A stretch of DNA of 64,000 bases from IMG/VR virus record IMGVR_UViG_3300006099_000007, positions 1 to 64,000 of that record. One strand, given 5' to 3'. Origin of the DNA: a virus. Lineage: Duplodnaviria > Caudoviricetes. The notes below the pieces were generated by a model. It had not been told where the DNA came from. It was given only the letters and a program-made list of their open reading frames with translations, and searched no databases. The position numbers were made by a program, and so were the translations under genes. Of the stretch, positions 1 through 64,000 are shown piece after piece (the first letter of the stretch is position 1; every line of letters begins with the position of its first letter).

Positions 1-135
1 GGGGCCGTTCCGATCGGTGCTTGTGTGACTGGCGGGGGTATTTTTCTGAAAGTGGAACGGAGTTTTTACGGAACGCAACGCCGTTATTATTAGCATGTTG
101 GAATATAAAAATCCAGCGAAAAACGGAACAGCCAG

Positions 136-156
136 AAAGAGAAAGCGGGGAATAAG
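136..156 (+). promoter_or_regulatory. Module-1 repeated motif, copy 1 (AAAGAGAAAGCGGGGAATAAG)
   Basis: Five near-identical copies, each just upstream of a late gene start (136, 2453, 4308, 10264, 14971). Confidence 0.6.
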
Positions 157-172
157 GAAAAGGAAAAATAGC

Positions 173-754
173 ATGCCAAGACGACCAACGGAAGACAGTT
201 TGAAAGTGCGGGCTCTGGCGAAAGCTCACGGCAAAACGGAGCGCTGGGCCCGGAAACAGCGGGAAAAGAACACGCCCATGTGGCAAGAATTCTGTGAAGG
301 GAAACAGGTGGCCAGCCCGGCAAAACGGGAAGACGCCCAGGAAAGAACGGATCTGGAAAAAGCAGAACTGATTTGCACGGAAGCCTGGGCCGCATGGCAA
401 GGAATGAACGGATTGCTGAACGCGGCCCTGAAAGATCCCGGCAAGCAGGATATTATTCCGTCCCTGGCCCGCGCCACCAGGGAATCCCGGAAACAATGGG
501 AAGACGCCACCAAGCACCGGGAAGCGCTATTGCGTGCGGCGGGATTGTGGATCCCGGTGGAACGGGTCATGGCAATCCGCACACACTTGAAACCGCTTGG
601 ATCCGTCATTGAAAAGCTGGAAGTGAACATTGCGGGCCGCCTGTCTCCGGAAAACCGGCATGAGTTTTACCAAGCCTTTGAAACCGCCATGCCGGAATGG
701 AACACGGGAATACGAAAAATGGATGAATATATCACTAGCCTTTTGCCATGTTAG
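173..754 (+). CDS. Putative terminase small subunit
   Basis: Overlaps the terminase large subunit start; similar to 30883..31491. ATG at 173 chosen because it follows the repeated motif (ORF track starts at 95). Confidence 0.6.
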   Translation: MPRRPTEDSLKVRALAKAHGKTERWARKQREKNTPMWQEFCEGKQVASPAKREDAQERTDLEKAELICTEAWAAWQGMNGLLNAALKDPGKQDIIPSLARATRESRKQWEDATKHREALLRAAGLWIPVERVMAIRTHLKPLGSVIEKLEVNIAGRLSPENRHEFYQAFETAMPEWNTGIRKMDEYITSLLPC

Positions 755-2472
755 AAGATCTCCTATTTCAGCCGCGGGGGAGTGTGGTGGAATGGGTGGA
801 ACGGGAATTGAGGCTGCCGAGGGAAACCTCCCCAAACGCGCCGGGCCCCGTGTCCCTGGACCGTCAGCCTTACATGAGGGAACCGCTGGAATGCCTGCGT
901 AATACCCGGATTGAACACTTGTATCTGGTTTGGGCAGCCCAAACCGGAAAAACAACGCTGGACCTCCTGGCCCTGGCCTATCTATTGGAACACGATCCCA
1001 TGCCCTTGCTATGGGCCCTCCCATCCGATAATCTGGCCGCGCCCTTTTCCCGCAACCGCCTTCAGCCGTTTCTGAAAGCGAATCCCTGCCTTGCCCGGCA
1101 TATCCTCCGGAATCCCGCATCTTTTGCCCCGCTGGAAATGACGCTGGACAATATGCCGATCTACATGACCGGCGTGACCAGCCCTGCCCGTCTGTCATCC
1201 CGGCCCATTGCTTACGTGATCCAAGACGAGGAAGCGAAATTTGAACATATCAACAAAAAAGAAGCGCATCCTTCCGCCCTGATCGAAGAACGTACAAAAG
1301 CCTTTCCGCGGCGGCTGATCATCCATAGCAGTACACCGAATGTTGAAGATGAACCCTACTGGCAGGGCTACAGCCTGACGGATTGCCGGGAATACTTCAT
1401 GCCCTGTCCCCATTGCGGGATGTGGATCCGGTTTGAATTCAGCCGGGCAACGCTGGTTTGGGACGGGGACAGCCTGGAAGAAATTGAAGCCAGCGCCCGC
1501 TATGTCTGCCCGGATTGTTCACGGCCCATTTACGACGCCCAAAAAATAGACATGATGCAGGCGGGCGAATGGAGGGCCACCAATGAAGCCGCGCATCCGT
1601 CCCGGCGCGGGTATCATTTGAATTCGCTTTATTCCCCTTTCGTGTCCTTTGGTCAGTTTGCCCGTAAATTTGTAGAAAGTTCCCGCGCCCTTCTGGCGCA
1701 AATGGAATTACAGAACTTCCGGAATTCCTGGGAAGCCCTGCCTTACTCAAAATATCAGGTTAAAGTGAAAGATCAGGCTGTGGAAGCCCTGAAAACTTCC
1801 GCGTACCGTCGGGGAGAAATGCCCCCCGTGGAACCGCTGTACCTGGTGGCCGGCTATGATCCGGGGGAACTGCAAACGCATTGGGTTGTTTGCGCCGTGT
1901 CAGCCGGCGGGGAATTATGGGTTATCGATTGGGGAACCATCCTAAGTTTCCGGACGGAGGGAGGCCGGAAAGGCGTTGCCGCCCATTTCCCCGGATTGCT
2001 GTATCAGGCAGGGGATCATATCTTTCAGCCGGCGCTGGGATTAGTAGATTCCGGCTGGAGCGCGGAAGCGACCTATACGGAATGCGCCCTGATGCCCGGC
2101 CAGCTTTATCCAACAAAAGGATCCGCCGCGGGTTTTGGCGTCTGGAATCGCACGGATTTGAAAACGCATCCGGGCCTTGAACTGTACACCTATCAGGACC
2201 GGGCCGCAAAAATCGAACTATACGCCGAACGCATTGCACACGGACGCGGCCCTGGGCTGCACCTTCCGGGGAACGCGGATCCGGATCTGATCAGGGGATT
2301 GAGCGGGCAAGTACTAGAAGAGAAACCCGGCAGCCCCAGCCAATGGAAGAAAATTGCCGGAGACCACTATGGCGACTGCGTGAAGCTCTGCATGTTTTCC
2401 TGGTGGGTCCTGAAATCATCCGTCCCGGATCCCGAACCGGAAGAAGAGAGAGAAAGAGACGGCGGGGAATAA
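748..2472 (+). CDS. Terminase large subunit, lambda GpA family
   Basis: Walker A AQTGKT, Walker B QDEE, zinc-binding CPHC/CPDC, C-terminal nuclease motifs (AGYDPG, VDSG, DHYGDC). Confidence 0.93.
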   Translation: MLEDLLFQPRGSVVEWVERELRLPRETSPNAPGPVSLDRQPYMREPLECLRNTRIEHLYLVWAAQTGKTTLDLLALAYLLEHDPMPLLWALPSDNLAAPFSRNRLQPFLKANPCLARHILRNPASFAPLEMTLDNMPIYMTGVTSPARLSSRPIAYVIQDEEAKFEHINKKEAHPSALIEERTKAFPRRLIIHSSTPNVEDEPYWQGYSLTDCREYFMPCPHCGMWIRFEFSRATLVWDGDSLEEIEASARYVCPDCSRPIYDAQKIDMMQAGEWRATNEAAHPSRRGYHLNSLYSPFVSFGQFARKFVESSRALLAQMELQNFRNSWEALPYSKYQVKVKDQAVEALKTSAYRRGEMPPVEPLYLVAGYDPGELQTHWVVCAVSAGGELWVIDWGTILSFRTEGGRKGVAAHFPGLLYQAGDHIFQPALGLVDSGWSAEATYTECALMPGQLYPTKGSAAGFGVWNRTDLKTHPGLELYTYQDRAAKIELYAERIAHGRGPGLHLPGNADPDLIRGLSGQVLEEKPGSPSQWKKIAGDHYGDCVKLCMFSWWVLKSSVPDPEPEEERERDGGE

Positions 2473-2473
2473 G
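2453..2473 (+). promoter_or_regulatory. Module-1 repeated motif, copy 2
   Basis: AAAGAGACGGCGGGGAATAAG directly before ATG 2476. Confidence 0.6.
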
Positions 2474-2475
2474 GT

Positions 2476-2754
2476 ATGAGCGGATTTTCTCAAGAAAGTT
2501 TAGATGCCCTGGCGGAGGCTTACAGCCTCCAGGAACTCAAGGCCAAAAGAAAGGAAGTAGCGGACAAGCTACTTGAACTTGACATGATCACATCCGCCAG
2601 CGGGGGCGGCGGCAGCAGTTACAGCCGGCAACAACGCATGGACGCGGAAAGCCTACTGGCCGCCCTGAACATGGCGATCAAGGCGAAGACGGGGCAATCT
2701 CCGAATCCGGGACAAAGCGTTACCATTGTAGGATTTAGGAATACAGATTATTGA
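2476..2754 (+). CDS. Head-tail joining protein (gpW-like)
   Basis: 92 aa between terminase and portal, the lambda W position; shares GGG.SY motif with 34986..35276. Confidence 0.6.
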   Translation: MSGFSQESLDALAEAYSLQELKAKRKEVADKLLELDMITSASGGGGSSYSRQQRMDAESLLAALNMAIKAKTGQSPNPGQSVTIVGFRNTDY

Positions 2755-2755
2755 C

Positions 2756-4333
2756 ATGAAACGACGCAAGAGAAAATACAAGTTACGCATGAACCGGGCA
2801 GATCTGGGCTCCATGCCGGAGGCCCTGAACCAGCCCCGCGCCCTGTCCCCTCAAATGTTCGGAGGCATCCAGGGCGCCCTGCCCTGGGCTAACGGCATGT
2901 TGTACTGGCCTACGCTGGATGACGCCTCCGAAATGGATGATTATGACCGTGCCGCCGTCATGAGGGCCGCCCGGTATCTGTACAAGAATTCCGGCGTCAT
3001 CCGGAAGGCCGTCCGTGACATTTGGCTATTGCAGGGCTGCCTGATGCCTATTCCTACGACGCAAGACCGGGACTGGAACCGGAAAGCCCGCGCGGCCTTT
3101 CTGGCGCGGGTGGCCAGCCCCGCCGCTTTTGACGTTACGGGAAAATTATCCTGGAAAACCATGCAGGCATGGGCCGAAAGGAAAACCAGCATTGACGGCG
3201 ATTGCCTGTGCGTTCTGGCCCGCGGCCTGGACGGCGGGGGAATGGTGGCCTGGTACAGCGCGCCGAAGATAATCACGCCGCCGGGCCTGGGTAAAGAAGA
3301 CGGCTGGAACCAGGGGGTGAAAACAAACGCACAGGGGCGCCCGGTTGCTTATGGACTGGCAACGGCGCCGGGCCGCTGCATCGTCATCCCCGCCGGCTGT
3401 GCCATCCTGTATCAGCGGGATCCGGATCCGGCAGTCCCACGCGGGGAATCAGATCTAATCCACGCCATCCGGCACGGGGTGGATATTGCGGAAATACACG
3501 GCTTTACGAAAGCCAGCGTGAAACTGTCCGCCGCCGTGGGATTTGTCGAAACGAAAACGGAGGCAGACAAGGCCCCCGGAATGGCCGCCGCCATTGGGGG
3601 CAAAAAGAAACCGGGCTGTGACGAAAAACCGGAAAATCCGGCGCAATCCTTTGAAGTCGTCACCGGCGGCGGGGCCCGTGTAGTCAGCCTTGCCCCAGGG
3701 CGTGATCTGAAAGCCATTTATGACCAGCGGCCATCTCCCAATGTGGCCGCCTTCATCCGCGACTTGCTCGCGGAAATCGCCTACGGCGTGGGACTGGACG
3801 CGGAAGTCCTCTATGACATCAACACGTTAGGAAGCGCGGCGGCCCGGCTGATCCTGTCAAAATTGCGGCGCTGGATCGACGAACGGAAAGACGCGCGGGA
3901 AGTGTACATGAACCGGATTTACCGGCATGTCCTGGCCCTGGAAATGGAGGCGGGGCGCCTCCCCCGCTGTAAAGATCCCGCCTGGGAAAACGTGGCCTGG
4001 GTGGGTCAGCGTGATTTGACGATTGATTTAGGCCGTGAAGGGGGCCTGGCAATCAATCTGATCCGGGAAGGACTGGCTGACGCGGACCGCTGGACGCTCG
4101 CCACGGAGGGCATGACTGCGGAAAGCATTTTGGACCGCCGGGCGGATTTGTTGCGCCGGGCTCATGAAATTGCCGAATCCTCCGGCATCCCCATCACGGA
4201 ACTTTTGCCTGGCGCCATCGGCTCCACACATGCGGCCCATGACGTGCACCCGGGGCCGCCTCCGGAAGACGATGAACCGGAAAATGCCGGCAACGGGGAA
4301 AAGAGCAAAAGAGACGGCGGGGAAAATATATAG
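2756..4333 (+). CDS. Portal protein, lambda family
   Basis: Size and position; PRG.SDL motif, LAPGRDLK..RPSPN, IAYGVGL; homologous to 35273..36805. Confidence 0.88.
   Translation: MKRRKRKYKLRMNRADLGSMPEALNQPRALSPQMFGGIQGALPWANGMLYWPTLDDASEMDDYDRAAVMRAARYLYKNSGVIRKAVRDIWLLQGCLMPIPTTQDRDWNRKARAAFLARVASPAAFDVTGKLSWKTMQAWAERKTSIDGDCLCVLARGLDGGGMVAWYSAPKIITPPGLGKEDGWNQGVKTNAQGRPVAYGLATAPGRCIVIPAGCAILYQRDPDPAVPRGESDLIHAIRHGVDIAEIHGFTKASVKLSAAVGFVETKTEADKAPGMAAAIGGKKKPGCDEKPENPAQSFEVVTGGGARVVSLAPGRDLKAIYDQRPSPNVAAFIRDLLAEIAYGVGLDAEVLYDINTLGSAAARLILSKLRRWIDERKDAREVYMNRIYRHVLALEMEAGRLPRCKDPAWENVAWVGQRDLTIDLGREGGLAINLIREGLADADRWTLATEGMTAESILDRRADLLRRAHEIAESSGIPITELLPGAIGSTHAAHDVHPGPPPEDDEPENAGNGEKSKRDGGENI
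4308..4328 (+). promoter_or_regulatory. Module-1 repeated motif, copy 3
   Basis: AAAGAGACGGCGGGGAAAATA upstream of the protease gene. Confidence 0.6.
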
Positions 4334-4351
4334 GGAAACCTGTATCATATC

Positions 4352-5488
4352 ATGAATAGAAAAAAAACATACCAGTTGCCCATGCTGACCATGCAAGCCG
4401 GAACCTCCGGCGCCGTGGCGGTCGTGGACGTTACCGGGGTTATTGGGTGGGATGACGCCCAATGCCTTGAATTTGCCGATAAGCTGAAAGCCGCCGCCAA
4501 TCAGGGCGCGTCCAGCATCACCTTGCGCGTGAACTCGCCCGGCGGGGACGTTTTTTCCGCGTTGAGCATGTACGATGCCATCCGTTCATGCAAGATCCCT
4601 GTCCGGGCGGAAGTTCATGGCCTGGCCGCCAGCGCGGCAAGCCTGCTGTGCATGGCCGCCGATACGGTAGCTATGAGCGAAAGCGCTAAATTCATGGTAC
4701 ATCAGCCCTATGCGGGCGTTTGGGGGAACCCGGATGAAATCATGAATTATGCGGCCATGCTGATCAAAGAACGGGAACGCATGTTTGCCATCTATGGCGG
4801 AAAATGCGGAAAGTCCTGGGAACAGGTCAGCAATGACCATAAGGCAAGCGTCTATTACAGCGCCGCGGAAGCCATTGCTTACGGCTTTGTGGATGAAGTC
4901 ATCCATGACGACGAAAGCGCCGGAAACGGTGAGGACGACGAAGAAGAAAACGCCGGAGACGAAGACGACGAATCCACAGCCACCGCGGAAACCGGCAACA
5001 ATGACGAAGAAGACGACGAAAGCCCTACAGGGGAAGAAGGGGACGACGAAGACGAAGAAACCGCCCCGGCGGCAGGCATGACCGGAAGCCGCCTGAACCT
5101 GAAAAACGCCGCGGGGGGCATCTGCATGCGTATTTTTGGCCTTACGGGATCCGGGAAGAAAAAGGATCCCTTGAAAGCGCTGAAAATGCAGAACAGCCGC
5201 CTGGCTGCCATGAACAAGGGACTGAAGGCCCAAGTGGCGAAGCTGAAAGCCGCCCAGGATCAACAGGCGGCAATCACGGAACAACTGGTGGAAAAACAGG
5301 TTACGGCCAGATTGGCGTCCCTGAATATTCCCGCTTCCGATCTTCCGTCAGCCACGGAAACCGAAATGACCGCCCCGGCGCAAACGGTAGCCCTGCCCGC
5401 CAGCAGGGAAGAATTCATGTCTCTGACCGTGGATGACCGCCTTGCTGTCACGTCCGCCTATCCGGAGGCCGTGAAAAAATGGCTTTGA
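4352..5488 (+). CDS. ClpP-type head maturation protease with acidic linker and C-terminal scaffold-like region
   Basis: NSPGGDV, GLAASAAS (catalytic Ser), MVH (catalytic His), AEAIAYGFVDEV. Confidence 0.9.
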   Translation: MNRKKTYQLPMLTMQAGTSGAVAVVDVTGVIGWDDAQCLEFADKLKAAANQGASSITLRVNSPGGDVFSALSMYDAIRSCKIPVRAEVHGLAASAASLLCMAADTVAMSESAKFMVHQPYAGVWGNPDEIMNYAAMLIKERERMFAIYGGKCGKSWEQVSNDHKASVYYSAAEAIAYGFVDEVIHDDESAGNGEDDEEENAGDEDDESTATAETGNNDEEDDESPTGEEGDDEDEETAPAAGMTGSRLNLKNAAGGICMRIFGLTGSGKKKDPLKALKMQNSRLAAMNKGLKAQVAKLKAAQDQQAAITEQLVEKQVTARLASLNIPASDLPSATETEMTAPAQTVALPASREEFMSLTVDDRLAVTSAYPEAVKKWL

Positions 5489-5554
5489 ATGCGATTGAGA
5501 TTCCTACGTCCCGGCCCGTCAGACCGGAGAATCAACCAAGAAAGAAATCATACG

Positions 5555-5938
5555 ATGCCAACTCTTTACGGTACAACGCCGGAATTCGGGATCAAAAACA
5601 GCGAATCCGGGATCCTTGTCGAAAGCATGAATTTTGACGGGTCCATGGAGAAATACGAACAGAAGGATCATATGGGAAAAGTCATTGGTGTTTACATCAT
5701 TGACGAAAAATTAAGCTTCAGCATGTCCGGAGCCCTCCCCCTGGGAGGGGATTATACGCTGACCATGGGAAGCACCCTCCTTTTGAATAATACCATTCCG
5801 CCCATTTGGAACAACACGCCCAAAGCCACAACGGTATTCATTGAGACTGTCAAGCGCAGCATGACCAACACGGGCCCCGTGAAACTGGACGTGAGTGGAA
5901 CCGTTTATGCGTTCGGAAGCGCTTCTTCCGAAGAATAA
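5555..5938 (+). CDS. Putative tail tube (major tail) protein
   Basis: Clear homologue of 40703..41083, which lies between tail terminator and chaperone; beta-rich 127 aa. Confidence 0.55.
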   Translation: MPTLYGTTPEFGIKNSESGILVESMNFDGSMEKYEQKDHMGKVIGVYIIDEKLSFSMSGALPLGGDYTLTMGSTLLLNNTIPPIWNNTPKATTVFIETVKRSMTNTGPVKLDVSGTVYAFGSASSEE

Positions 5939-5978
5939 CAACATATTAACATTCAACTATTAGAAAACAAAAAAACAT

Positions 5979-6983
5979 ATGACTATCGCAAATAAAGGAA
6001 ACAAGCCGTTTAATATGAAGGATCTGTTCCCGGTCACCAATTTGACCGACCAGAAGCCCAGCATGCACATGGCGGAAAACACGAACAGCATTGCCGGCCT
6101 GGGCTGGAAAACTGTTGCAAGCAAAAGCCTTGCCGCGGTAAGCGAGGTTTTTGCCCCGCTGGACCGTTATACAACGGACTACACGGACGAAATTGTGACT
6201 TTTGGGCCAGGACGGGCCGTCACGCTAACCATTGAAATTGCCAGGGAAGTAGGGGAAGCCCTCAAGAACCCGGAAGATTGGAACGTTTCAGCCGTCAAAA
6301 CGGATGCCGTCAGCATTGAGTGCAACCGCTACAGCCGCCCGTTCCTGGTCACGTCCTATGACATGGCCGCCGGAAGCCGCCTGGAAGGGAAGCTGAACAA
6401 GGCTATTGAAACCGTAGCCAAGGCCGTCCTGAAGGACTTGCACACGCAGATCAAGACCGCCGCGCCGGAAGTAATTTCCGGCGTGACGCTGGAAAGCTTC
6501 ACGCCGGAATACGTGGCAACCGTGCTTTCCGGACTGATCATCCCGGAAGTGTCCGCCCTGACGGTGAATCCCACCTACCACGCCAAGCTGACGCCTTATA
6601 ACGCGGACAGCCTGAAATTGGAAACCGGCGTGTACGGGATTGGCGGCATTTACAAGGCTACCGGCCTGGAAGCCCTGTCTGACGATAAAAAAACCATTGG
6701 ATATATGGGATATGAAAATGCCATCGGCATCATCAGCCGCCAGCCCTTGATTCCCACCGAAAACGGCGCCATTTTCGTTTCCGAACTGGGCAGCGTCGGA
6801 GGCATCAAGCTTTACCTGAAACAATGGGTTGTGCCTGGGATGGAAGGGGTTATGCACTCCGTAGAAGCCGCCGTGGGAACCGTCGTGGCCCTACCGGAAA
6901 ATCTGCGGTTGTTGAGTACCGCCGCCGCGGCATCCGGAACCGCGTCCGAAAAAGACGCCGGAGAAGAAGACCCCGCGGCATAA
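5979..6983 (+). CDS. Major capsid protein
   Basis: 334 aa downstream of the protease; homologous to 38024..38986 (ALKNPEDWN/ALKNTEDWN, NRYSRP). Confidence 0.75.
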   Translation: MTIANKGNKPFNMKDLFPVTNLTDQKPSMHMAENTNSIAGLGWKTVASKSLAAVSEVFAPLDRYTTDYTDEIVTFGPGRAVTLTIEIAREVGEALKNPEDWNVSAVKTDAVSIECNRYSRPFLVTSYDMAAGSRLEGKLNKAIETVAKAVLKDLHTQIKTAAPEVISGVTLESFTPEYVATVLSGLIIPEVSALTVNPTYHAKLTPYNADSLKLETGVYGIGGIYKATGLEALSDDKKTIGYMGYENAIGIISRQPLIPTENGAIFVSELGSVGGIKLYLKQWVVPGMEGVMHSVEAAVGTVVALPENLRLLSTAAAASGTASEKDAGEEDPAA

Positions 6984-7005
6984 CCTGTCCGGTATTTGTT
7001 GAACT

Positions 7006-7401
7006 ATGAGCCGCCGTCGGAACCGTGCAAACGTCCGGGCGGCGGCCCTTTTTCCGAAATTATCATCAATGAGTGTACGTGAGTTATTAACCGCCGGCGG
7101 GAATGACATGATCCGGGAATTGGGGGAACGTGTACGGCTGTTGCGCAAAGGGAACGTGTATGCGGATTGTTACGCCGTTGTTTCCCCCGCCGCCGTGGGG
7201 TACACCGTGGAAATTGGAGGCGCGGAAAAACAGGTTACGGCACATTGCATGTTGAGAGCTCATGACCTTCCCAAGCTTCCGCGGGCCGGGGACCGCCTCA
7301 CCGTTTCCGCCCCGCTGGGGGATCAGCCGGTCATATATTATATTACCACGGTAACGAGCGGCAACACGGATCCTATGATCCACATGGATCTTGCATCATG
7401 A
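7006..7401 (+). CDS. Head-tail adaptor/closure protein (gpFII-like)
   Basis: Position after capsid; P.AGDRL.V motif; counterpart of 39075..39395. Confidence 0.55.
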   Translation: MSRRRNRANVRAAALFPKLSSMSVRELLTAGGNDMIRELGERVRLLRKGNVYADCYAVVSPAAVGYTVEIGGAEKQVTAHCMLRAHDLPKLPRAGDRLTVSAPLGDQPVIYYITTVTSGNTDPMIHMDLAS

Positions 7402-8168: not shown

Positions 8169-8189
8169 CCTCAAACATATCATGAAATC

Positions 8190-9521: not shown

Positions 9522-9525
9522 ATAA

Positions 9526-10284: not shown

Positions 10285-10288
10285 TTAT

Positions 10289-10747: not shown

Positions 10748-10770
10748 CGGAGCCGGACGGGTGGGCGGGA

Positions 10771-11731: not shown

Positions 11732-11734
11732 ACC

Positions 11735-12151: not shown

Positions 12152-12166
12152 CAAATTATCAATATT

Positions 12167-12616: not shown

Positions 12617-12619
12617 CCG

Positions 12620-51450: not shown

Positions 51451-51454
51451 GGCC

Positions 51455-51682: not shown

Positions 51683-51685
51683 TTC

Positions 51686-51713: not shown

Positions 51714-51751
51714 CTTTATCTCATAGCCAATAGTTTATAACTTAATTAACC

Positions 51752-54608: not shown

Positions 54609-54618
54609 AAGAAGTACC

Positions 54619-55371: not shown

Positions 55372-55392
55372 GCAGATATTGCTTTTCCAGCA

Positions 55393-55428
55393 AGCCCTGT
55401 TTCCTTTTTGGGAGCAGGGCTTTTTTAA
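55393..55428. terminator. Bidirectional terminator between scaffold and integrase
   Basis: AAGCCCTG..CC/GG..CAGGGCTT stem with T run. Confidence 0.65.
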
Positions 55429-56564: not shown

Positions 56565-56566
56565 AC

Positions 56567-56759
56567 CTGTAATATCTTCTGTAATGGTTTTGTAATAAGG
56601 TTCGCGTAAGAAAACCTACACGAACCTTATTCATAATCCCCTACGTTATCAAGGTTTACGTAGGTTTTCTTACAGAAACTTTTGGCGGAGAGAGTGGGTG
56701 TTAAGTTTATTTCTATAAATAATTTGCTTCAATTTGTAACACTTCTGTAACGTCTGTAT
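56567..56759. other. attP-like site: tRNA-Ser-type 3' end core (56683..56698) with YTGTAA arm repeats on both sides
   Basis: Reverse complement CCCACTCTCTCCGCCA; CTGTAA/TTGTAA at 56567, 56579, 56590, 56734, 56745. Confidence 0.7.
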
Positions 56760-56799
56760 GACAGAGACAAGATGCCGAATTGGAGATTCTGCAACTGAA

Positions 56800-56817
56800 T
56801 TGACACTCGGCAACTTG
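56800..56817 (+). promoter_or_regulatory. Module-3 repeated motif, copy 1 (TTGACACTCGGCAACTTG)
   Basis: Related copies at 58383 and 63457, each before a structural gene. Confidence 0.55.
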
Positions 56818-56849
56818 CAAATGTGCGGTTTCTGTCCCCTGATGGAAGC

Positions 56850-57818
56850 ATGCCAAGTAATTACACTTTACCCATCTCCGATCTTTATCAGGAGACTTAC
56901 GATAACCAGTGGCAGGAGCAGGTTCAGCAGGCTACGTCCCGCCTGGAACGTTTCTGCGTGATCAAGTCCGGTTTGACGGGCAAGCTCCAGGAGTTCAGTT
57001 TTGTCGGTACTACGGAGCTGAATGAGAAGCAGGGCCGGATGCAGGATATTGTGTTGGACGAGCTTGATTATTTCAAGCGCCGGATGCTGCCGGTTAGTTT
57101 TTCGAAGCATTTGGGCTATGATGAGGATGACGATATTTTCCTGCACGGCCTGGACGCTCCCGTGACGCAGACGATTAACGCGCTGAAGTACGCGGCTGCC
57201 CGCAAGATGGACGATGTTTTGTTCGGCCTGAAGAAGCAGGGAGGGGTATATGTGCCGTCCAAGGGCGGCATTTTCGGGACGGCGTTTGCCGGCAATGACG
57301 GCATGGAACAGCTGGAATTGCTGGAGGCTAATGTGGTGGCAGTCGATTATACCGGCGGCACGGCTAAGGATTGCCCGCTGACGATTGAGAAGCTGAACCG
57401 TGGTATTACGCTGCTGCAGGAGAACGGGATTCTGGATGATGCTTCCAATGCCTACGGCGACCAGGTGTGCTGCGCGATTACTCCCCGCATGCGCGAGGCC
57501 CTGATTAATGACGAGCGTCTGCAGAAGGCGGATTTCGGTTTTTCCTCCCTGCGCAAGAGCAACGGCGCCCTGGATCCGATTATGGGGATTCAGTTTATCA
57601 TTGCTCCCAATTTGCCGCTTGACGAGGACGGGGATATCATTTGCCCGATGTGGATGAAGAATTCCCTGTATTTCGGTTCTTGGAAGCAGAATAAGGTGAC
57701 GGTGGAGAAGCGCTCCGATAAGGAGGACACGATCCAGATCGGCCTTAAGACGATTATGGGAGCCACCCGCATGCGCGAAGAGGCGTTTGTGCAGATTAAG
57801 TGCAAGCAGCTTTCTTAA
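56850..57818 (+). CDS. Major capsid protein (podophage type)
   Basis: Y...W...VQQ..SRL, KR....F, GYD..D pattern; followed by a decoration-like gene and a terminator. Confidence 0.8.
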   Translation: MPSNYTLPISDLYQETYDNQWQEQVQQATSRLERFCVIKSGLTGKLQEFSFVGTTELNEKQGRMQDIVLDELDYFKRRMLPVSFSKHLGYDEDDDIFLHGLDAPVTQTINALKYAAARKMDDVLFGLKKQGGVYVPSKGGIFGTAFAGNDGMEQLELLEANVVAVDYTGGTAKDCPLTIEKLNRGITLLQENGILDDASNAYGDQVCCAITPRMREALINDERLQKADFGFSSLRKSNGALDPIMGIQFIIAPNLPLDEDGDIICPMWMKNSLYFGSWKQNKVTVEKRSDKEDTIQIGLKTIMGATRMREEAFVQIKCKQLS

Positions 57819-57850
57819 TTAGGATAACAACACATTTTATTTTATTGATT

Positions 57851-58306
57851 ATGGCAACGTATCAAACAGTTATTGCAGAGAAACAGCTTGCCCTTGCGGA
57901 TCGGACCGGCCTGCCGACGGTGCCGCAGCTGGCGGCCATCCATACCGGCGCCGGGGTCCATGTGGCTACGGCGGAGTTCATCATGCCCGCGTCCCTGGCG
58001 GCCGATGACCTGATCGCCATTTGCAATGTTCCCTGTGGAGCCCGCGTGCTGCCGCAGCTTTCCCATGTCGTTTCCGAAGGCGTGGGGACGCTGCAGCTGA
58101 CCGTGGGAACGAAGGAGGCGGCGGATGCTTTTTCCGCCTCCCTGACCGTGACCGCCGCCGGGACTTATCAGTTGACGAAGGGTTCCCAGGCGGTTTCCAC
58201 GGGGCCGGTGGATGCTGTGACGATGGTTTACGCGAAGGTGGGCGGAACACCGGCGGTGACCGCCGGCAAGAAGCTTGTTTTTGCTATTGCTTACGGTATT
58301 CAGTAG
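57851..58306 (+). CDS. Capsid decoration/minor capsid protein
   Basis: 151 aa, Ala/Thr/Val-rich beta protein directly after the capsid gene. Confidence 0.55.
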   Translation: MATYQTVIAEKQLALADRTGLPTVPQLAAIHTGAGVHVATAEFIMPASLAADDLIAICNVPCGARVLPQLSHVVSEGVGTLQLTVGTKEAADAFSASLTVTAAGTYQLTKGSQAVSTGPVDAVTMVYAKVGGTPAVTAGKKLVFAIAYGIQ

Positions 58307-58330
58307 TTTTTTTTCCGTCGGTTTGTCCAT

Positions 58331-58362
58331 AGGGCCGTCTCTGCATGGAGGCGGCCCTTTTT
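58331..58362 (+). terminator. Terminator after capsid genes
   Basis: AGGGCCGTCTC/GAGGCGGCCCT stem plus T run. Confidence 0.75.
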
Positions 58363-58382
58363 GCTGTTCCGGAGAAGAAACG

Positions 58383-58400
58383 TTGATTTTCGCCAACTTG
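58383..58400 (+). promoter_or_regulatory. Module-3 repeated motif, copy 2
   Basis: TTGATTTTCGCCAACTTG. Confidence 0.55.
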
Positions 58401-58435
58401 CCCCGGTTGAACGCCCTGGGTTATGTTCAGGGGAA

Positions 58436-61400
58436 ATGAAGAGGATTTCCTTTAATGGAGGCGAGCTTTCGCCCGGGATTGCCGCGCGTCCGGATCTGGA
58501 TGTTTATCATCGCGGGGCGTCCGTGCTGGAGAATGTGGATGTTTCCCAAACGGGGGGAGTTTCCCGGCGGCACGGGATGAGGAGGGTGGCCGCCGCTTTG
58601 GAGGGTTCCCTTCTTCTTCCCTATGTTTATTCCACCAATGACCGTTTTCTTGTGGAGGTGGCTCCTTCTCTGCTGCGCGTGTTGTCCGTTGAGGGGGATG
58701 TGGTTGCCTCCCTGCCTTCCGTGTGGACGGCGGCTGACGTTGCCGCCCTGCGCCACAAGCAGGTGAACAGCATGTTGTTTCTGGCCTGCCCTACGCATGA
58801 GCTGATGGTGCTGAGACGGGATGACGAGGGCATGTTTTCCCTGGCGCCCTATGAGTTTAAGGCCCGCCCCTGGCGGTATGAGGAGTTCCGGGATTTTCCG
58901 GTGCGCCTGACGCTGGATGAGGGGTGTTACAGGGTGTCTTTCGGGGAGCATGCGTCCGATGCGGACGCGGCGGTGAATGAGGGGGATGTGATGCGCGTCC
59001 AGGTGACGGTGCCCCAGCAGACCGGGTTCAGCACGGGGGCCGTGATTCGCCAGGGCTGGGTGGTTGCCGGGGCGTTTACGGCGGCCAGCGCTTTCACGGC
59101 TGGGAAAAAGCTCTGCCTCAATGAGGGGAGTTATTGGTCCTGGTGGACGTGCGACAGGGATTTTAACGGGGCGGCGGATTTTGTGGACGGCCTGACGTCT
59201 CCGGCGGATTATCCGGAGCATTTTCATAAGGGCGTGATTTGCCATTCCAATACGATTACCTGCAAGGGGACATGGAAGTTTTGGTGCAGTAAGGAGTGGT
59301 ACGGCACGTATGCCGTGGAGCGGCGTTTTCCCGATGAGGATTGGCAGCTGCTGGGGACGTCCACTTCCATGGTTGGCTCGGCTTCCAATTTGCAGATTAC
59401 CGGGGACGAGAGCGAAGAGGAGTGCTACCTGCGCCTGATGTTGTATGAGTCCCGGCTTTCCAGCGGTTCCGATCCCAGCCAGGGGTTTCCTCCGGACAGC
59501 TGCGGGAATAAGCTGGTGGTGGATGCTTATAAGAAGGATGTGGTGCTGCGGCTGCGTTCCGGCTCCCGGCCTGCTTCCATACAGCGGTTTTCGGTTCCCG
59601 CCACGCCGGCGTTGCGGCATTTCCTGACCTGTACGGCGTCTTCCATCCGGGCAAGCCGCGTGTGGGTGGATGAGGTGGAGGTTCCGGGGGCGTCCGCCGT
59701 GCTGACGCTGGGGCCCGACGGTGTTGACGTGACGCCCAGGGGGCTGCCCGCGGATGCGCTGGAGGACGGGAAGACGGTCCGGTTTGCCTGGACGGAGCCG
59801 CGCAAATCCGGGGCCGTGACGCTGGACGCCCGCGGGATGAGGACGGATTTTTGGCCAGCCGGGGCGAGGTTTGACGTGAATGTGACGGGGAACGCCCTGA
59901 CCGGAATGGGTGAGGGCGCGGTGGTTCGGTTGACGGCCTGGTCCGCCGGGGATGCGCAGTTTACGACGGTTTGGAAGAGCAGTGCGGATGTGTATACCGC
60001 GCCGGCCAGCGGGTTTTATACGGTTAAGGTTGTTCATGATAAGGGCAGTACGCTGGAGGCTGCCGAGTGTCAGGCGGAGTTTTCCGGGGTGGCTTCCGGG
60101 GTGGTGAAGCCGGAAGTCCGGGAGGAGATGTCCGCGGCGGGGTTGTCCACCAGCGACGTGTTGAAGTTGACGCTGCCTTTGGAGGGCGATGCGTATGATT
60201 ATTGCGTGTATGCCGGGTTGCCCGCAGTGAATGCCCTGGTGGTTGACGGGGAGCGTTTTTCCGGGGAGTGTCCGTTGTCCAGAGAGGGGCGGACGCTGAC
60301 GGTGAGGCCCAGGGGGCTGACGACGGATGATGTGGGCGCCGGGAGCATGGTGCGCCTGGAGTGGACGCAGGCGGCGGAGTCCGTCAATAAGAGCGGGAAC
60401 GGGAATGCGGCCAGCATTTTCATGAGCCGTTTTTTAACGGCGGGTACGGTGGTGACGCTGCAGGGATGGAGGTCTGTCCAGTCGGGGATGGAGATTGTGC
60501 TGCCTTCCACGATCAAGGGGATGTCCGGCGGCAGGTATGCGGAGGTGTTCAGCGCGATGGAGGAGGCGTCTTACACGGTGCCGGAGGATGGTTTGTTTTT
60601 GATTAGCGTACAGGCATGGACGGAGAGTAATGTGAAGTTGCGTTCCCGGGTGCGGGTGGAGGTGCCGGCCTGCACGGCGTGGATGGAGGCGGAGGCTGCC
60701 GAGGTGACGGCTTCCGCGGAGTATTCTCTTTGGGATAATGTTTCCGCGGTTCCGGAGGGGGTTCCTCCGTCCGGGGAGTCGTTGATGTGGAGTTTCGCGG
60801 CGTTCCGGGGGGTGTACGGGTTTCCTTCCCTGGTGGATGTGTTTCAGCAGCGCCTGGTGTTGGCCGCTACGCAGGCCCAGCCGCAGACGGTGTGGTTGAG
60901 CAAGACGGATGACCTCAACAGTTTCGAGGTGGGGAAGCAGGATGATTCCGCGCTGGCTTTGACGTTGAGCACCACAACGCAGAACAGGATTTGCTGGCTG
61001 ATGGCGCAGAGTTCCCAGCTGCTGCTGGGGACGGCGGACGCGGAGTGGACGGTGTCCGGGGGCCAGGGGGTGATGACTTACGCCAACGCGCGGGCGGACA
61101 GCCACGGGTTTGTGGGGTCTTCCGATGTGCCGGCCCTGATGGCGACCGATAAGGTGCTGTATGTGGAGAGGGGCGGCGGACGGGTGTATCAGTACGGGTA
61201 TGATTATGAGAGCGACGGGTTTGTGTCCCGCGATTTGACGGTGTTCGCCGATCATGTGCTGGCCGGCGGCGGCGGGGTTACTTCCGGGGATTTTATGAGG
61301 AAGCCCCACCCGCGGGCGGTGATGACCCTGGCGGACGGCACGCTGGCGCTGATGACTTATAATAGCATGCACCAGGTGCATGCCTGGCACCGTCACAGGA

Positions 61401-61825
61401 CGGAGGGGCGGATGTCCAACGCCGTGGTGCTGCCCAATGGGACCGGGGAGGATTTGCTGTTTGTGTCCGTGGAGCGTGAGGATGGGCGGTTTGTGGAGGT
61501 GTTTGATCCGGACGGCCCGTTTGTGGATGCCGGCGCGTGGGATTTTACGTCCACGGTGGTGACGAATGCGCTGGATGTGGCGGAGTCCCTGGGCAGGGAT
61601 AGACAGGCCGCGGCCGTGCGCGTGTTTTTTGCTTCCGATACGGCCCCGGCCGGTATTGAGGTGTCCAATGACGGGAGCGCCTGGGACCGGTTGAGCAAGA
61701 CCAGGACGATGGAACGGGGATGGCATGAGGTGCTTCCGTCCGCCATGTGGAGGCGGGATGTGCGGTTTGGCATCCGGGTTTCCGGGGACCGCCCCCTTGA
61801 GTTTTTAGCTGTTGATACGCAATGA
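58436..61825 (+). CDS. Tail tubular protein B (nozzle, T7 gp12-like) with large insertion
   Basis: SFNGGELSP..R.D.DVY N-terminus; FPSLV.VFQQRL, W.S...D...F, YVERGG, DLTVFADH motifs. Confidence 0.88.
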   Translation: MKRISFNGGELSPGIAARPDLDVYHRGASVLENVDVSQTGGVSRRHGMRRVAAALEGSLLLPYVYSTNDRFLVEVAPSLLRVLSVEGDVVASLPSVWTAADVAALRHKQVNSMLFLACPTHELMVLRRDDEGMFSLAPYEFKARPWRYEEFRDFPVRLTLDEGCYRVSFGEHASDADAAVNEGDVMRVQVTVPQQTGFSTGAVIRQGWVVAGAFTAASAFTAGKKLCLNEGSYWSWWTCDRDFNGAADFVDGLTSPADYPEHFHKGVICHSNTITCKGTWKFWCSKEWYGTYAVERRFPDEDWQLLGTSTSMVGSASNLQITGDESEEECYLRLMLYESRLSSGSDPSQGFPPDSCGNKLVVDAYKKDVVLRLRSGSRPASIQRFSVPATPALRHFLTCTASSIRASRVWVDEVEVPGASAVLTLGPDGVDVTPRGLPADALEDGKTVRFAWTEPRKSGAVTLDARGMRTDFWPAGARFDVNVTGNALTGMGEGAVVRLTAWSAGDAQFTTVWKSSADVYTAPASGFYTVKVVHDKGSTLEAAECQAEFSGVASGVVKPEVREEMSAAGLSTSDVLKLTLPLEGDAYDYCVYAGLPAVNALVVDGERFSGECPLSREGRTLTVRPRGLTTDDVGAGSMVRLEWTQAAESVNKSGNGNAASIFMSRFLTAGTVVTLQGWRSVQSGMEIVLPSTIKGMSGGRYAEVFSAMEEASYTVPEDGLFLISVQAWTESNVKLRSRVRVEVPACTAWMEAEAAEVTASAEYSLWDNVSAVPEGVPPSGESLMWSFAAFRGVYGFPSLVDVFQQRLVLAATQAQPQTVWLSKTDDLNSFEVGKQDDSALALTLSTTTQNRICWLMAQSSQLLLGTADAEWTVSGGQGVMTYANARADSHGFVGSSDVPALMATDKVLYVERGGGRVYQYGYDYESDGFVSRDLTVFADHVLAGGGGVTSGDFMRKPHPRAVMTLADGTLALMTYNSMHQVHAWHRHRTEGRMSNAVVLPNGTGEDLLFVSVEREDGRFVEVFDPDGPFVDAGAWDFTSTVVTNALDVAESLGRDRQAAAVRVFFASDTAPAGIEVSNDGSAWDRLSKTRTMERGWHEVLPSAMWRRDVRFGIRVSGDRPLEFLAVDTQ

Positions 61826-63435
61826 CGGAGCCTGCGAAGACGAGACCGGATTGGAAGGAGCTGCTGGCCGACAGGTGGTGGCGCCTTAATCATTTGTATT
61901 GGATTGAGGATAAGGAGGGCCGGATGGTGCGCTTCCGCCCGAATTGGGCCCAGGAGGAGCTTTTTCACGGGCTTTGGTTCCGCAATACGATTTTGAAGGT
62001 GCGCCAGCTGGGGATTTCTACGTTTTGCGCCATTTATATGCTGGATCTTTGCCTGTTTGGGAGGAATCAGCATTGCGGGATTATTGATAAGACGCTGGAG
62101 GACGGGGAGGCCAAGCTGCGCAAGATTGCTTTTGCTTATGAGCATTTGGATTTTTTGCCGGAGAATCCGACGATGGAGGACCGGGCGCTGGCTGCTTTGG
62201 GGAGGATGGTTAAGGAGGGGTGCGCTGTGGTGGAGAAGAGGGCCACCCGCATGGCCTGGTCCACGAACGGGTCTGTTGATGTAGGGGTTAATTTGCGCGG
62301 GTCCACTCTCCAGTTTTTGCATATTTCCGAGTTTTCCTATACGGCGCTGCATGATCCGGCCAGGGCCAGGAAGATCCGCACGGGCGCGTTGAATACCGTT
62401 GGCAAGAGCTGCGTGGTGGTGATGGAGTCCACCCACGAGGGAGGGAAGGCCGGGCTGGCTTACCAGTTGATGGAGCAGGCTATGGAGATGGTGGGCAAGC
62501 CTCTTTCCAGCCTGGATTTCAGGTTTTTCTTTTTTTCCTGGATTCAGCATCGGGAGTATTGCCTGGAGGGGGTGGAGCCGAGGCTGGATGATTTTTTGCG
62601 GGATTATTTTTCCGATTTGAAGAGGCGTTACGGGATTGAGTTGTCCGAGGGGCAGAAGGCGTGGTACGCTACCCAGTACAGGATTAACGGGGCGGAGGTG
62701 AAGCAGGAGTTTCCCACCGTGCCGGAGGAGGCTTTGCAGACGTCCGTGGAGGGGGCTATTTACGGGAGGTGGATTTCTGCCCTGCGGGCCGAGGGGAGGA
62801 TCGCAGCCGAGTTTGAAGTGGATGACGTGGCTCCGATTTATGCTTCCTGGGATTTGGGGTTGAGCGATTTTATGGCGATTTGGCTTTGGCAGGTGGTGGG
62901 CGGCAGGTATTACGCGCTGGATTATATTGCCGGGAATAATCAGGCGGTTGATTATTACGTGGGGCAGATCCGGATGAGGGAGAGGGAGTTCGGGCCTGTC
63001 GCCCTGCACCTGCTGCCGCACGATGCGGCCAGGAGGGATTTTTCCAAGACTTCTTTTGAGTCCGTGCTGCAGCGGGCCGGGTTCCGCACGGCGATCGTGC
63101 CGCGCACGTCCGATGTCTGGACCGGGATTAACGCGCTGCGGAATATGCTGCGTTTTTGCGTGTTTCATGAGCGCTGCAACCGGCGCCCGGAGATTGACGG
63201 GCAGAAGTATGTTTCCGGGGTGGGTTCCCTGGAGTATTACCGCAGTTTGCCGCCGGGGTCCAACGGGTGCGTGCGGGAGATGCCGCTTCATGACGCCTGT
63301 TCCCATGGCGCGGATGCCGCACGAACCTTTGCGGAGGCGGTGAGCCGCGGCCTGGTGTCCGGTCATGCAGGGGAGCCGGAGAAGGTGAAGAGGCCTCACA
63401 GACGCCCCGACGCTCTGGAGGGGATGCTTTATTGA
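61822..63435 (+). CDS. Terminase large subunit (KxRQxG family)
   Basis: KVRQLGIST Walker A, HISE Walker B, MEST coupling motif, ASWDLG nuclease, HD..SHGADA. Confidence 0.9.
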   Translation: MTEPAKTRPDWKELLADRWWRLNHLYWIEDKEGRMVRFRPNWAQEELFHGLWFRNTILKVRQLGISTFCAIYMLDLCLFGRNQHCGIIDKTLEDGEAKLRKIAFAYEHLDFLPENPTMEDRALAALGRMVKEGCAVVEKRATRMAWSTNGSVDVGVNLRGSTLQFLHISEFSYTALHDPARARKIRTGALNTVGKSCVVVMESTHEGGKAGLAYQLMEQAMEMVGKPLSSLDFRFFFFSWIQHREYCLEGVEPRLDDFLRDYFSDLKRRYGIELSEGQKAWYATQYRINGAEVKQEFPTVPEEALQTSVEGAIYGRWISALRAEGRIAAEFEVDDVAPIYASWDLGLSDFMAIWLWQVVGGRYYALDYIAGNNQAVDYYVGQIRMREREFGPVALHLLPHDAARRDFSKTSFESVLQRAGFRTAIVPRTSDVWTGINALRNMLRFCVFHERCNRRPEIDGQKYVSGVGSLEYYRSLPPGSNGCVREMPLHDACSHGADAARTFAEAVSRGLVSGHAGEPEKVKRPHRRPDALEGMLY

Positions 63436-63456
63436 GATGCGGCAGGGATAGAAACA

Positions 63457-63474
63457 TTGATTCTCGCCAACTTG
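63457..63474 (+). promoter_or_regulatory. Module-3 repeated motif, copy 3
   Basis: TTGATTCTCGCCAACTTG. Confidence 0.55.
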
Positions 63475-63506
63475 AAGGAAGTCCGCCCTCATGCGATTGT
63501 TGGGGA

Positions 63507-64000
63507 ATGGATAAGCTGACGTTTTTTTCACAGTGCCTTTCCCTGCTGGGGGATCAGGAGTTTGTGATGGATTCCCCGGCGGCCAGGGCTTGCGAGTTGT
63601 GGTTTCCATCCGTGATGCTGGAGGCCGTTTCCTATGGCCCGTGGTCGTTTGCCACGAAGGAGGCCGTGCTGGCGTGCCCGGAGGGGAACGGCCGGTTTCC
63701 GCTGCCGGAGGATTGCCTGAAGTTGTTGAAGGTGGAGGCCAGGCGCTGGCGCATGGCCGGCCGCGTGGTGATTTGCGAGGAAGCTCCTTCCCTGCTGCAG
63801 GTGCGGTTTTTGTCCAATGAGGCGGCTTTGGCAGAGATGCTGCCGGATCATGAGCCTTTGTTTGTGGAGGCCGTGAAGTGTTTGCTGGCTTCCAAGGTGG
63901 CGGCCACGGTGACGGGCAAGCCGCAGAATGTGGGCGTGTTTTTGGAGTTGTACAGGGGGTATGTTGCCGACGCCCTGTATCACGATGTGAGCCAGCGCGG
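63507..64000 (+). CDS. Tail tubular protein A (T7 gp11-like), partial
   Basis: Translated by hand (no stop in window): MDKLTFFSQCLSLLGD...W.FA.K...LPEDCLKL...LF.EAV..LLASK.A. Confidence 0.75.
   Translation, partial: MDKLTFFSQCLSLLGDQEFVMDSPAARACELWFPSVMLEAVSYGPWSFATKEAVLACPEGNGRFPLPEDCLKLLKVEARRWRMAGRVVICEEAPSLLQVRFLSNEAALAEMLPDHEPLFVEAVKCLLASKVAATVTGKPQNVGVFLELYRGYVADALYHDVSQR

Follow-up and report, generated by a model that had tools for sequence, protein, structure and literature searches.

A 79.5-kb viral record with three virion gene sets is most likely a misassembly of three Akkermansia phages within a shared fibre/lysis cassette

The virus record IMGVR_UViG_3300006099_000007, a 79.5-kb contig (to position 79528) in which three virion modules are accompanied by two attP sites, neither of them split, is probably a short-read assembly chimera of three distinct, co-occurring temperate Akkermansia phages. 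The stretch analyzed here, its first 64,000 nucleotides (the window), consists of parts of three separate, well-attested Akkermansia phages in a chain: the late-gene half of a siphophage resembling Moulinsart (A, 1 to ~18.3 kb), one full circular unit of ~34 kb of a common tRNA-Cys-integrating prophage, running through its own attP (B), and, counted to the end of the contig, 30 kb out of a ~42-kb temperate podophage, likewise running through its own attP (C). All three are identifiable in their natural gene order, their attP sites are unsplit, the joints between them lie in shared DNA and the resulting linkages are unique to this record; the joining most likely took place in the assembler instead of in the cell. 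The original prediction had read the stretch as three complete virion modules. Three structural sets are indeed present, but only B is a complete phage, A being short of ~12 kb and C of ~11 kb, with replication and lysogeny regions of their own absent from both the A and the C part. No host DNA was found across the full 79.5-kb contig, and neither circularity nor terminal repeats were found when looked for. Genes were called from PHROG profile matches, with Pfam for integrase 1, while the capsids of sets 1 and 2 were assigned by position only, as they have no PHROG match; host genomes were reached by a tRNA-Glu pattern search.

Phage A fills positions 1-18300 on the plus strand, and its match to ON453896 333-15752 has 95.5% identity. 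It opens with a small ORF that is a TerS candidate (95-754), followed, all on the same strand, by the genes for TerL (748-2472), portal (2756-4333), protease (4352-5488), capsid (5979-6983, by position), tape measure (12620-14965), fibre (14996-16651) and endolysin 1 (17711-18403), of which TerL, portal, protease and endolysin are backed by PHROG matches. Akkermansia phage Moulinsart (ON453896), a prophage of A. muciniphila YL44, shares the late gene order and is 95.5% identical to window 1-15409, its fibre C-terminus and lysis genes being 84-88% identical to the window up to 18713. Past that point Moulinsart continues into its own repressor/toxin, regulators, methyltransferase, primase and a different integrase-like region, whereas the window passes into phage B genes. 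In strain YL44, Akkermansia prophages occupy three separate loci (PMC10197239). The closest relative of A is a prophage inside a 322-kb host contig (L145), which differs from the window by 0-4 mismatches per 100 nt as far as ~18300.

The block at 18.7-30.9 kb, comprising replication genes, an integrase gene, early genes and a tRNA-Glu, forms one phage, B, together with structural set 2. The replication block (18749-22289, minus strand, PHROG matches) contains a helicase-like gene (18749-20578) and a primase gene (20476-21690), both PHROG-assigned, and a 200-aa gene (21687-22289) on the P' side of the first att site, attP1. Then come tyrosine integrase 1 (int1, 22443-23525, plus strand, with Pfam domains Phage_integrase and Phage_int_SAM_5), an early/regulatory region (23504-29891, PHROG matches) with small genes on the minus strand (23504-26501), an HTH regulator (27309-27662, PHROG) and a HicB-like gene (29200-29571, PHROG), and a tRNA-Glu(TTC) on the plus strand (30035-30110) that is identical to the host tRNA-Glu and has a terminator hairpin behind it. 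The packaging, head and tail genes (30721-49588, plus strand) start with a TerS candidate (30721-31491) and proceed through TerL (31484-33229), portal (35273-36805), protease (36847-37968), capsid (38024-38986, by position), tape measure (42575-45202), a 620-aa tail protein (45973-47835), a glycosyltransferase-like gene (47832-48614) and the N-terminal part of a fibre gene (from ~48565/48620), with PHROG matches for TerL, portal, protease and tape measure. As no fewer than 14 independent IMG/VR contigs, five of them with isolate/MAG-style ids, have the region 23.5-30.9 kb in one unbroken piece with set 2, the junction once placed at 30.1-30.9 kb is interior to phage B, and the module borders drawn in the original prediction have to be moved. 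The same finding disposes of a joining of phages at their packaging ends, because 30.1-30.9 kb, upstream of terminase 2, lies inside B and the real joints, which fall in the fibre/lysis cassette, are not terminase-proximal.

The natural order of B follows from its integrated relatives. Its replication block comes after the B fibre/lysis genes in six B-type contigs, and in genome G166 a remnant of this block adjoins tRNA-Cys. The canonical B-type prophage, IMGVR_UViG_3300027542_000792 (loci L070 and L077), corresponds at 96% identity to window 22379-49624 followed directly by 15491-22408, and lies between host tRNA-Glu and an intact tRNA-Cys; L077 itself matches window 35974-49624 at 96% identity and then runs straight to the equivalent of 15491-22408. 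The window therefore carries one circular permutation of B. Gene content as in the window, at 96% identity, characterizes the B-type Akkermansia prophages (among them 3300027542_000792, 2835279802_000003 and 2848755655_000001), which share int1, early genes, an internal tRNA-Glu, head, tail, fibre, lysis, helicase, primase and the 200-aa gene. In these relatives the prophage sits within tRNA-Cys, its att is split and host DNA flanks it at either end, whereas B in the window is circularly permuted, has an intact attP and is bounded by foreign phage DNA at both ends. No relatives of B were found in the GenBank phage collection. We considered the tRNA-Glu as a host island between prophages and rejected this, since it is internal to B-type prophages, two of which (L068, L070) keep the host copy outside attL; the one tRNA between the modules is phage-borne.

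Set 3 fits a T7-like/podophage virion module, a morphology predicted from its portal, capsid, tail tubular and internal ejection protein genes (PHROG 332, 3437, 376 and 394, together with a lysozyme-domain internal protein and a 3275-aa protein) and from the absence of tape measure and tail tube genes from the set. The portal and scaffold region of phage C (52711-55371, plus strand; PHROG 332, 458 and 3742) holds a podophage-type portal (52711-54360) and a scaffold/protease-like gene (54517-55371), both with PHROG matches. Tyrosine integrase 2 (int2, 55425-56564, PHROG 1) lies on the minus strand, and the late part (56823-64000, on to 79528, plus strand) comprises the capsid (56823-57818), a tail protein (58361-61825), TerL (61822-63435), a further tail protein from 63432 and, past the window, a lysozyme-domain internal protein and a 3275-aa protein. 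C-type podophages of Akkermansia are represented by a 41.9-kb integrated prophage of G166, with which the C part is colinear, by IMG/VR contigs of 41-45 kb and by a free form, IMGVR_UViG_3300029873_000030. At 82-99.7% identity they have the gene order of the window, namely fibre, lysis, portal, scaffold, int, att, capsid, tail, TerL, internal proteins and giant protein; in the window, B structural genes take the place of both their ~11-kb early region and the fibre N-terminus specific to C. Among 22 C-type IMG/VR relatives, all 22 carry the fibre/lysis cassette directly before the portal, which means that position 52.5 kb, originally taken for the border between siphophage and podophage, is no border.

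The attP1 core (22379-22408, minus strand) is identical to the final 30 nt of host tRNA-Cys(GCA), with arm repeats TTTACTAC at 22329, 22341 and 22482, and the attP2 core (56683-56698, minus strand) is the 3' end of tRNA-Ser(CGA), flanked on both sides by arm repeats CTGTAA(T/C). Core 1 is split in the integrated relatives L070/L077, L068 and G166: the int side (L070, L068) reads host tRNA-Glu, 23 nt, core and int, and the other side (L077, G166) reads 200-aa gene, core and the remaining tRNA-Cys. Ten C-type contigs break off at int2, precisely at the position matching 56564, and five part from the window at the core. Contig L043 has int, core and an intact tRNA-Ser, diverging from the window at 56698; the C-type prophage of G166, located ~100 kb from the tRNA-Cys locus, has att2 split between 56685 and 56776; and L039 has core 2 unsplit, as in the window. 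Both sites in the window are intact attP sites, with P and P' arms around the core, and not attL/attR, as the original prediction had recognized from the tRNA 3'-end cores beside the two integrases. A search of the whole 79.5 kb returned each core once only, and no attL/attR pair. With unsplit attP sites, no such pair and no host DNA, the view that the phages' own integrases did not put them here holds.

Tandem lysogeny at tRNA-Cys would have a hybrid phage (A late genes with B-type replication and integrase genes) and a B-type phage integrate successively at the same core, leaving a rebuilt attP-like junction between them, with the C part needing a separate event. In lambda dilysogens, tandem integration leaves a P'-core-P junction between the two prophages. 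The window has one at 22379-22408, and with the block at 15.5-18.7 kb common to A-type and B-type phages a hybrid is conceivable; we nevertheless regard this course of events as very unlikely. A site-specific tandem array of n prophages is expected to contain n+1 cores, with host-joined attL and attR at its ends, and the contig has each core once and neither end. B-type replication genes follow the A late genes in none of seven A-type contigs. Core 1 and an int1 homologue are both absent from A-type phages, Moulinsart included, and the A-B order is therefore not explained by integrase-mediated tandem lysogeny. Neighbors in the chain do not share an integrase and att site, as A lacks core 1 and int1 and C uses tRNA-Ser or tRNA-Gly, and the phage borders fall in the fibre/lysis cassette, away from the cores; the B-C joint and the unsplit attP2 would also be left unexplained.

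Both joints lie inside a fibre-RBD/holin/endolysin cassette (17.7-18.4 kb and 49.5-51.7 kb) that is mosaic in all three lineages. The A-to-B switch zone is within endolysin 1 (17700-18400, plus strand), where A-type and B-type phages agree to 97% or more: in the mismatch profile A-type L145 diverges after ~18300-18496, and B-type contigs are near-identical to the window from ~17700 onward into the helicase gene. Closure of the B circle at 15491 was considered, L077 having the same fibre C-terminus, and was rejected on the mismatch profile against the closer A-type L145, which puts the switch at 17.7-18.4 kb. At the second joint, an 82-nt stretch in the fibre gene (49507-49588, plus strand) is the overlap of two phage types: the B-type match stops within the fibre, L077 being identical to 49588, and L119 and L125, which carry another phage type's receptor-binding part, are identical from 49507. 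Beyond it extends a mosaic of fibre C-terminal part, small genes (50567-51450), holin-like region and endolysin 2 (51934-52476), together 49589-52476 on the plus strand, standing between the B and C parts. A sliding best-match scan found this cassette to be common to A, B, C and other Akkermansia phages, with the best match switching every 250-500 nt. C-type contigs L034-L036 show 99.6-100% identity from 51293/51685, and the 420 nt at 51293-51713 are present also in B-type L075 and in phage Chantilly. The B-to-C switch lies somewhere within 49.5-51.7 kb. A search for the native home of the poorly matched segment at 50.5-51.25 kb gave a CRISPR spacer only. No ORF is interrupted or shifted out of frame at either joint.

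Many genomes and metagenomes contain A, B or C by itself as an ordinary prophage. The linkage of B to the C portal is present in none of eight B-type contigs, B structural genes lie upstream in none of 11 C-type contigs, and the pattern across the 49.5-kb fibre joint has no match in IMG/VR and none in JGI metagenomes. This counts against a single composite element building several virion types, which the original prediction had entertained, as does the want of replication and lysogeny regions in the A and C parts. Three virion gene sets that share a strand and are not separated by host genes would suit such an element, or a deliberate end-to-end concatenation of binned contigs, but concatenation would not yield seamless in-frame joints at homologous positions within genes, and we hold both to be highly improbable.

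Assemblies of related, co-occurring phages yield chimeric contigs with joints in near-identical shared segments. The record resembles such virome and metagenome contigs in that its joints lie within DNA of high identity in the parents (endolysin 1, 49507-49588 and 51293-51713), the sides of each joint match different independent genomes, the ends coincide with mosaic boundaries and independent assemblies lack the long-range linkage. Near-identity over 700 nt at endolysin 1 and over 420 nt or 82 nt at the second joint is of a kind that would confuse a de Bruijn graph. For such a chimera, B and C at least would have been present in the sample in an excised (circular or replicating) form. The assembly path would start in the late genes of siphophage A, cross to B in the near-identical endolysin segment at ~17.7-18.4 kb and run once around circular B (replication genes, attP1, int1, early genes, tRNA-Glu, head, tail and fibre N-terminus); it would then cross to podophage C in the shared fibre/holin/endolysin cassette at 49.5-51.7 kb and follow C through attP2, the contig ending at the start of the C early region. 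The assembly chimera, which the original prediction had set up as its null hypothesis, is the best-supported explanation. Against it stands that, among the relatives found, the sole two-sided identical overlap at the fibre joint is 82 nt, a length that modern assemblers with long k-mers and 150-nt reads usually resolve; a chimera therefore needs a B parent natively bearing this receptor-binding part, and none was present among those relatives. The intact in-frame ORFs at the joints are predicted equally by real recombination.

Such recombination could have produced an in vivo cointegrate, in which circular B and C entered an A-type prophage or replicating concatemer by Campbell-type homologous recombination via the cassette, giving the layout A-left, cassette, full circle of B, cassette, full circle of C, cassette, A-right, with the contig stopping inside C. 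Lambda-type double lysogens and the homology-driven insertion of a phage into a resident prophage leave an intact attP with phage genes to its left and right, and the genome that has entered is a complete circular permutation bordered by the shared homology. The window conforms: B is a full-length permutation of ~34 kb opened in the cassette, diverged cassette copies lie on both sides of it (15.5-18.4 kb and 49.5-52.5 kb), and neither attP site is split. Across siphophage and podophage lineages the cassette clearly serves as a hotspot of natural recombination, with in vivo exchange happening at these points, and a tRNA-Glu inversion isomer in L055 and G166 documents in vivo recombination involving B-type prophages; both speak for a cointegrate. 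The proposal that the phages stacked through shared fibre/lysis DNA was therefore right about the positions of the joints, but by sequence alone its product is indistinguishable from a chimera. However, the double-lysogen and insertion cases involve related phages, with host flanks and attL/attR at the array ends, whereas the record combines three different morphotype lineages, lacks host DNA throughout the 79.5 kb, terminates in phage DNA at either end and shows linkages seen in no other genome or metagenome record examined. A cointegrate also requires two rare homologous insertions by phages with apparently intact integrases and free attB sites, should be unstable, as intact attP sites, active integrases and matching attB sites in the chromosome lead to deletions and inversions, and exceeds the packaging length of phages with genomes of 31-42 kb. 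We consider a cointegrate unlikely, and judge it equally doubtful that the array is real, that is, that a siphophage and a podophage, both temperate, joined a resident third prophage by homologous recombination via a receptor-binding/lysis cassette common to all Akkermansia phages, bypassing their own integrases, to form a multi-virion island with live attP sites.

Were the array real, it would mean that prophages of different morphotypes in an important gut commensal can stack through homology, without recourse to their integrases. As matters stand, the three-phage composite is most likely an assembly error and not a new element, and its value is mainly that of a warning: a viral contig that is long, free of host DNA and of seemingly high quality can consist of three genuine phages misjoined where they have a host-range/lysis cassette in common, and chimeric records of this kind would inflate estimates of genome size and gene content in viral catalogues. 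The analysis also yields a correct map of a very common tRNA-Cys-integrating Akkermansia siphophage with its own tRNA-Glu, and one of a ~42-kb temperate podophage with int-attP within the head operon. It further shows free exchange of the fibre C-terminus and lysis genes between no fewer than three or four lineages of Akkermansia phages. A comparably implausible hybrid occurs elsewhere in these assemblies: IMG/VR record 3300029707_000381 (L058/L085) switches from B to A at a shared glycosyltransferase gene and hence has two tape-measure genes.

The record is a single 79,528-bp viral contig, of which the window covers the first 64 kb; it has neither terminal repeats nor N runs along its length, and its host association is with Akkermansia. 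The three virion sets of the original prediction are real, each having its own TerL, portal and further virion genes. Set 1 (1–18.4 kb) comprises TerL, portal, ClpP-type protease, tape measure, fibre and endolysin and belongs to phage A, a close relative of Akkermansia phage Moulinsart, to which window positions 1–18713 are 84–95.5% identical. Next come genes for a helicase-like protein, a primase and a 200-aa protein (18.7–22.3 kb, minus strand), tyrosine integrase int1 (22443–23525) and, up to 29.9 kb, small early genes, regulators and a HicB-like gene. Set 2 (30.7–52.5 kb) consists of TerL, portal, protease, tape measure, fibre and endolysin. The first gene of set 3, at 52711, is a podophage-type portal; a scaffold/protease-like gene, integrase int2 (55425–56564, minus strand), capsid, tail proteins and TerL come next, and past the window end the set goes on with an internal protein that has a lysozyme domain and with a protein of 3275 aa. 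As detailed below, the contig is the late half of A, one full circle of siphophage B and three quarters of podophage C, joined at homologous positions of a shared fibre-RBD/holin/endolysin cassette; it contains no host DNA.

The junction proposed at 30.1–30.9 kb lies within B: at least 14 independent IMG/VR contigs with TerL2 relatives, five of these having isolate- or MAG-style identifiers, carry 23504–30879 in one piece with the sequence from 30882 on. This stretch includes the only tRNA of the window, tRNA-Glu(TTC) at 30035–30110, identical in sequence to a tRNA-Glu of Akkermansia genomes; taken earlier for a lone host gene between modules, it is phage-borne. In six contigs with relatives of the 620-aa tail protein, the B fibre is followed by fibre C-terminus, lysis genes, helicase, primase, 200-aa gene and core, the best case being contig 3300027542_000792, of which locus L077 matches window 35974–49624 with its positions 1–13640 and window 15491–22408 with positions 13646–20562 (96%). 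B is therefore a prophage of 33–34 kb with the integrated order core, int1, early genes, tRNA-Glu, head, tail, fibre, lysis, replication genes, core, and the window holds exactly one circular permutation of it. B is common in IMG/VR, and no relatives were found in the GenBank phage collection searched. Over window 20000–48000, in phage B, GC skew is strongly positive (0.17–0.33) independent of gene orientation; it is lower in the A part (0.03–0.15) and at 50–58 kb (0.02–0.12). A 24-nt box, TTTTGAAAAAGCTCCTGAAGGGTA, occurs four times (34963–34986, 36809–36832, 40643–40666 and 48590–48613; three exact copies and one with 1 mismatch, chance expectation 0), always in phage B and on the plus strand. 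Each of the three exact copies lies shortly 5' of a late gene start, making the box a candidate late promoter or regulatory element, and it also points to the ATG near 48620 as the true start of the fibre.

Two unbroken attP sites had been proposed, correctly, since integrated relatives are split where the window is not. Core 1 (22379–22408), directly upstream of int1, matches in reverse complement the 3' end of a tRNA, namely the final 30 nt of host tRNA-Cys(GCA), which in Akkermansia chromosomes is followed after 23 nt by tRNA-Glu. Integrated relatives are split exactly at this core: in L070 and L068 the host tRNA-Glu is followed by 23 nt, the core and int1; L077, from the opposite end of the L070 contig, has the 200-aa gene, then the core and the remainder of tRNA-Cys; and host genome G166 keeps a 2.8-kb remnant with the 200-aa-gene side fused to tRNA-Cys. 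At core 1 of the window both arms, P' and P, are joined, hence an intact attP. Core 2 (56683–56698), beside int2, is the 3' end of tRNA-Ser(CGA). Relative L043 has an intact tRNA-Ser at this position and diverges from the window at 56698, four C relatives diverge at 56685, adjoining tRNA-Gly, ten end where int2 starts, and the C-type relative in G166 has its att site split, with the two ends 41.9 kb apart; L039 has core 2 unsplit, as in the window. The entire contig has a single copy of each core. The tRNA-Glu of B-type prophages equals the host tRNA-Glu located 23 nt past the tRNA-Cys attB, the two copies being inverted (window 22379–30110). The order int(−), core(+), 23 nt, tRNA-Glu(+), terminase side is found in L055 (1921–4574; IMGVR_UViG_3300029732_000278) and in the G166 remnant (L029 9617–12621; G166:C1:1689617–1692621), and is the inversion isomer expected of recombination between both tRNA-Glu copies. 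Such an inversion sets the att cores inverted to each other, which should block excision and lock the prophage in place.

Phage C is a temperate podophage of roughly 42 kb, some 30 kb of which is present, permuted through attP2. This size follows from the integrated G166 prophage, ordered capsid to giant protein, 11-kb early region, fibre, lysis, portal, scaffold, int, together with the contig's right end (79528), which falls where that early region begins; the early region itself is not in this contig. In all 22 portal relatives the portal is immediately preceded by fibre C-terminus, small genes and endolysin, and farther upstream lies DNA unrelated to this contig. C is common in IMG/VR, the GenBank phage collection giving small cassette matches only. 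The int2-attP2 unit lies between the scaffold and capsid genes (window 54517–57818), a placement kept in 22 of 22 relatives that divides the head operon between both ends of the integrated prophage.

At the A-to-B joint, the closest A-type relative, L145 (a prophage carried on a host contig of 322 kb), has 0–4 mismatches per 100 nt to ~18300 and has diverged by 18496, and B-type contigs are equally close from ~17700 on into the helicase gene; the switch thus falls inside endolysin 1, where the A and B lineages are at least 97% alike. At the B-to-C joint, B-type L077 is identical to 49588, and identity to another phage type (L119/L125) spans 49507 to ~50500. No close relative was found for 50.5–51.25 kb; 51293–51713 is common to B-type L075, phage Chantilly and C-types, and C-types L034–L036 are 99.6–100% identical from 51293/51685. 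These positions place both joints in the one cassette, along which the best-matching relative switches every 250–500 nt among A, B, C and other lineages. Window 51101–51134, inside a 155-aa cassette gene (50983–51450), is matched at 34/34 nt by a CRISPR spacer. The spacer belongs to an array of 62 repeats in L149 (IMGVR_UViG_3300029014_000107), and the repeat, GTCGCACTCCGCAAGGAGTGCGTGGATTGAAAC, resembles type I-C. An extra fibre/lysis cassette copy, 70–84% identical to window 50308–52445, opens IMGVR_UViG_3300027542_000792 (L129 1–2150), ~8.6 kb left of the host tRNA-Glu bordering the canonical B-type prophage. The genes between had no Pfam matches, and the copy may be the end of another nearby prophage.

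The order A-B-C, the lack of host DNA and the two intact attP sites are predicted both by joining in silico and by joining in the cell. We consider an assembly chimera the probable origin. B and C would have been present in the sample as excised circles, with reads running through attP, and the assembler would have taken wrong exits from a three-way repeat. One argument is that the linkages are unique to this record: A leads into B replication genes in none of the seven A-type contigs reaching past the cassette (Moulinsart, L091, L093, L134, L141, L143 and L145), B leads to the C portal in none of eight B-type contigs, B structural genes precede the C portal in none of 11 C-type contigs with ~10 kb upstream, and a pattern with anchors either side of the fibre joint at 49.5 kb has 0 matches among IMG/VR and JGI metagenome contigs. 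A second is that the joints lie in near-identical segments of 420–700 nt, longer than short reads, although the overlap documented at the fibre joint is only 82 nt, which would count against a chimera; this explanation would be comfortable only if the sample's B phage naturally bore this receptor-binding part, with the crossing farther right. The arrangement is similar to lambda dilysogens and homology-driven prophage cointegrates, and circular B and C genomes might have joined an A-type prophage by homologous recombination. We regard this as unlikely, since two rare events would be needed, in phages that have intact integrases and attB sites free for them, and since live attP sites should make such an array unstable; both points favour the chimera. 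The contig does not belong with integrase-made tandem arrays, and tandem integration at tRNA-Cys is ruled out as the cause of the A-B adjacency, neither core 1 nor an int1 homologue having been found in A-type phages. In strain YL44, three induced Akkermansia prophages occupy three separate chromosomal loci (PMC10197239). The tandem three-module composite originally proposed is most likely not a real genomic feature. A chimeric origin is also favoured by a similarly implausible B-to-A switch in a sister contig, IMGVR_UViG_3300029707_000381 (L058 and L085; 29,998 bp), itself likely a further chimera. It runs through B early, head and tail genes as far as the tape measure and 620-aa protein, switches at a shared glycosyltransferase gene and continues with the tail genes of A, among them another tape measure and the A fibre, so that it has two tape-measure genes. 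The pair of tail-protein and glycosyltransferase-like genes at this crossover is common to A (8190–10284) and B (45973–48614) at 70–84% nucleotide identity, and occupies a different place in the tail module of each.
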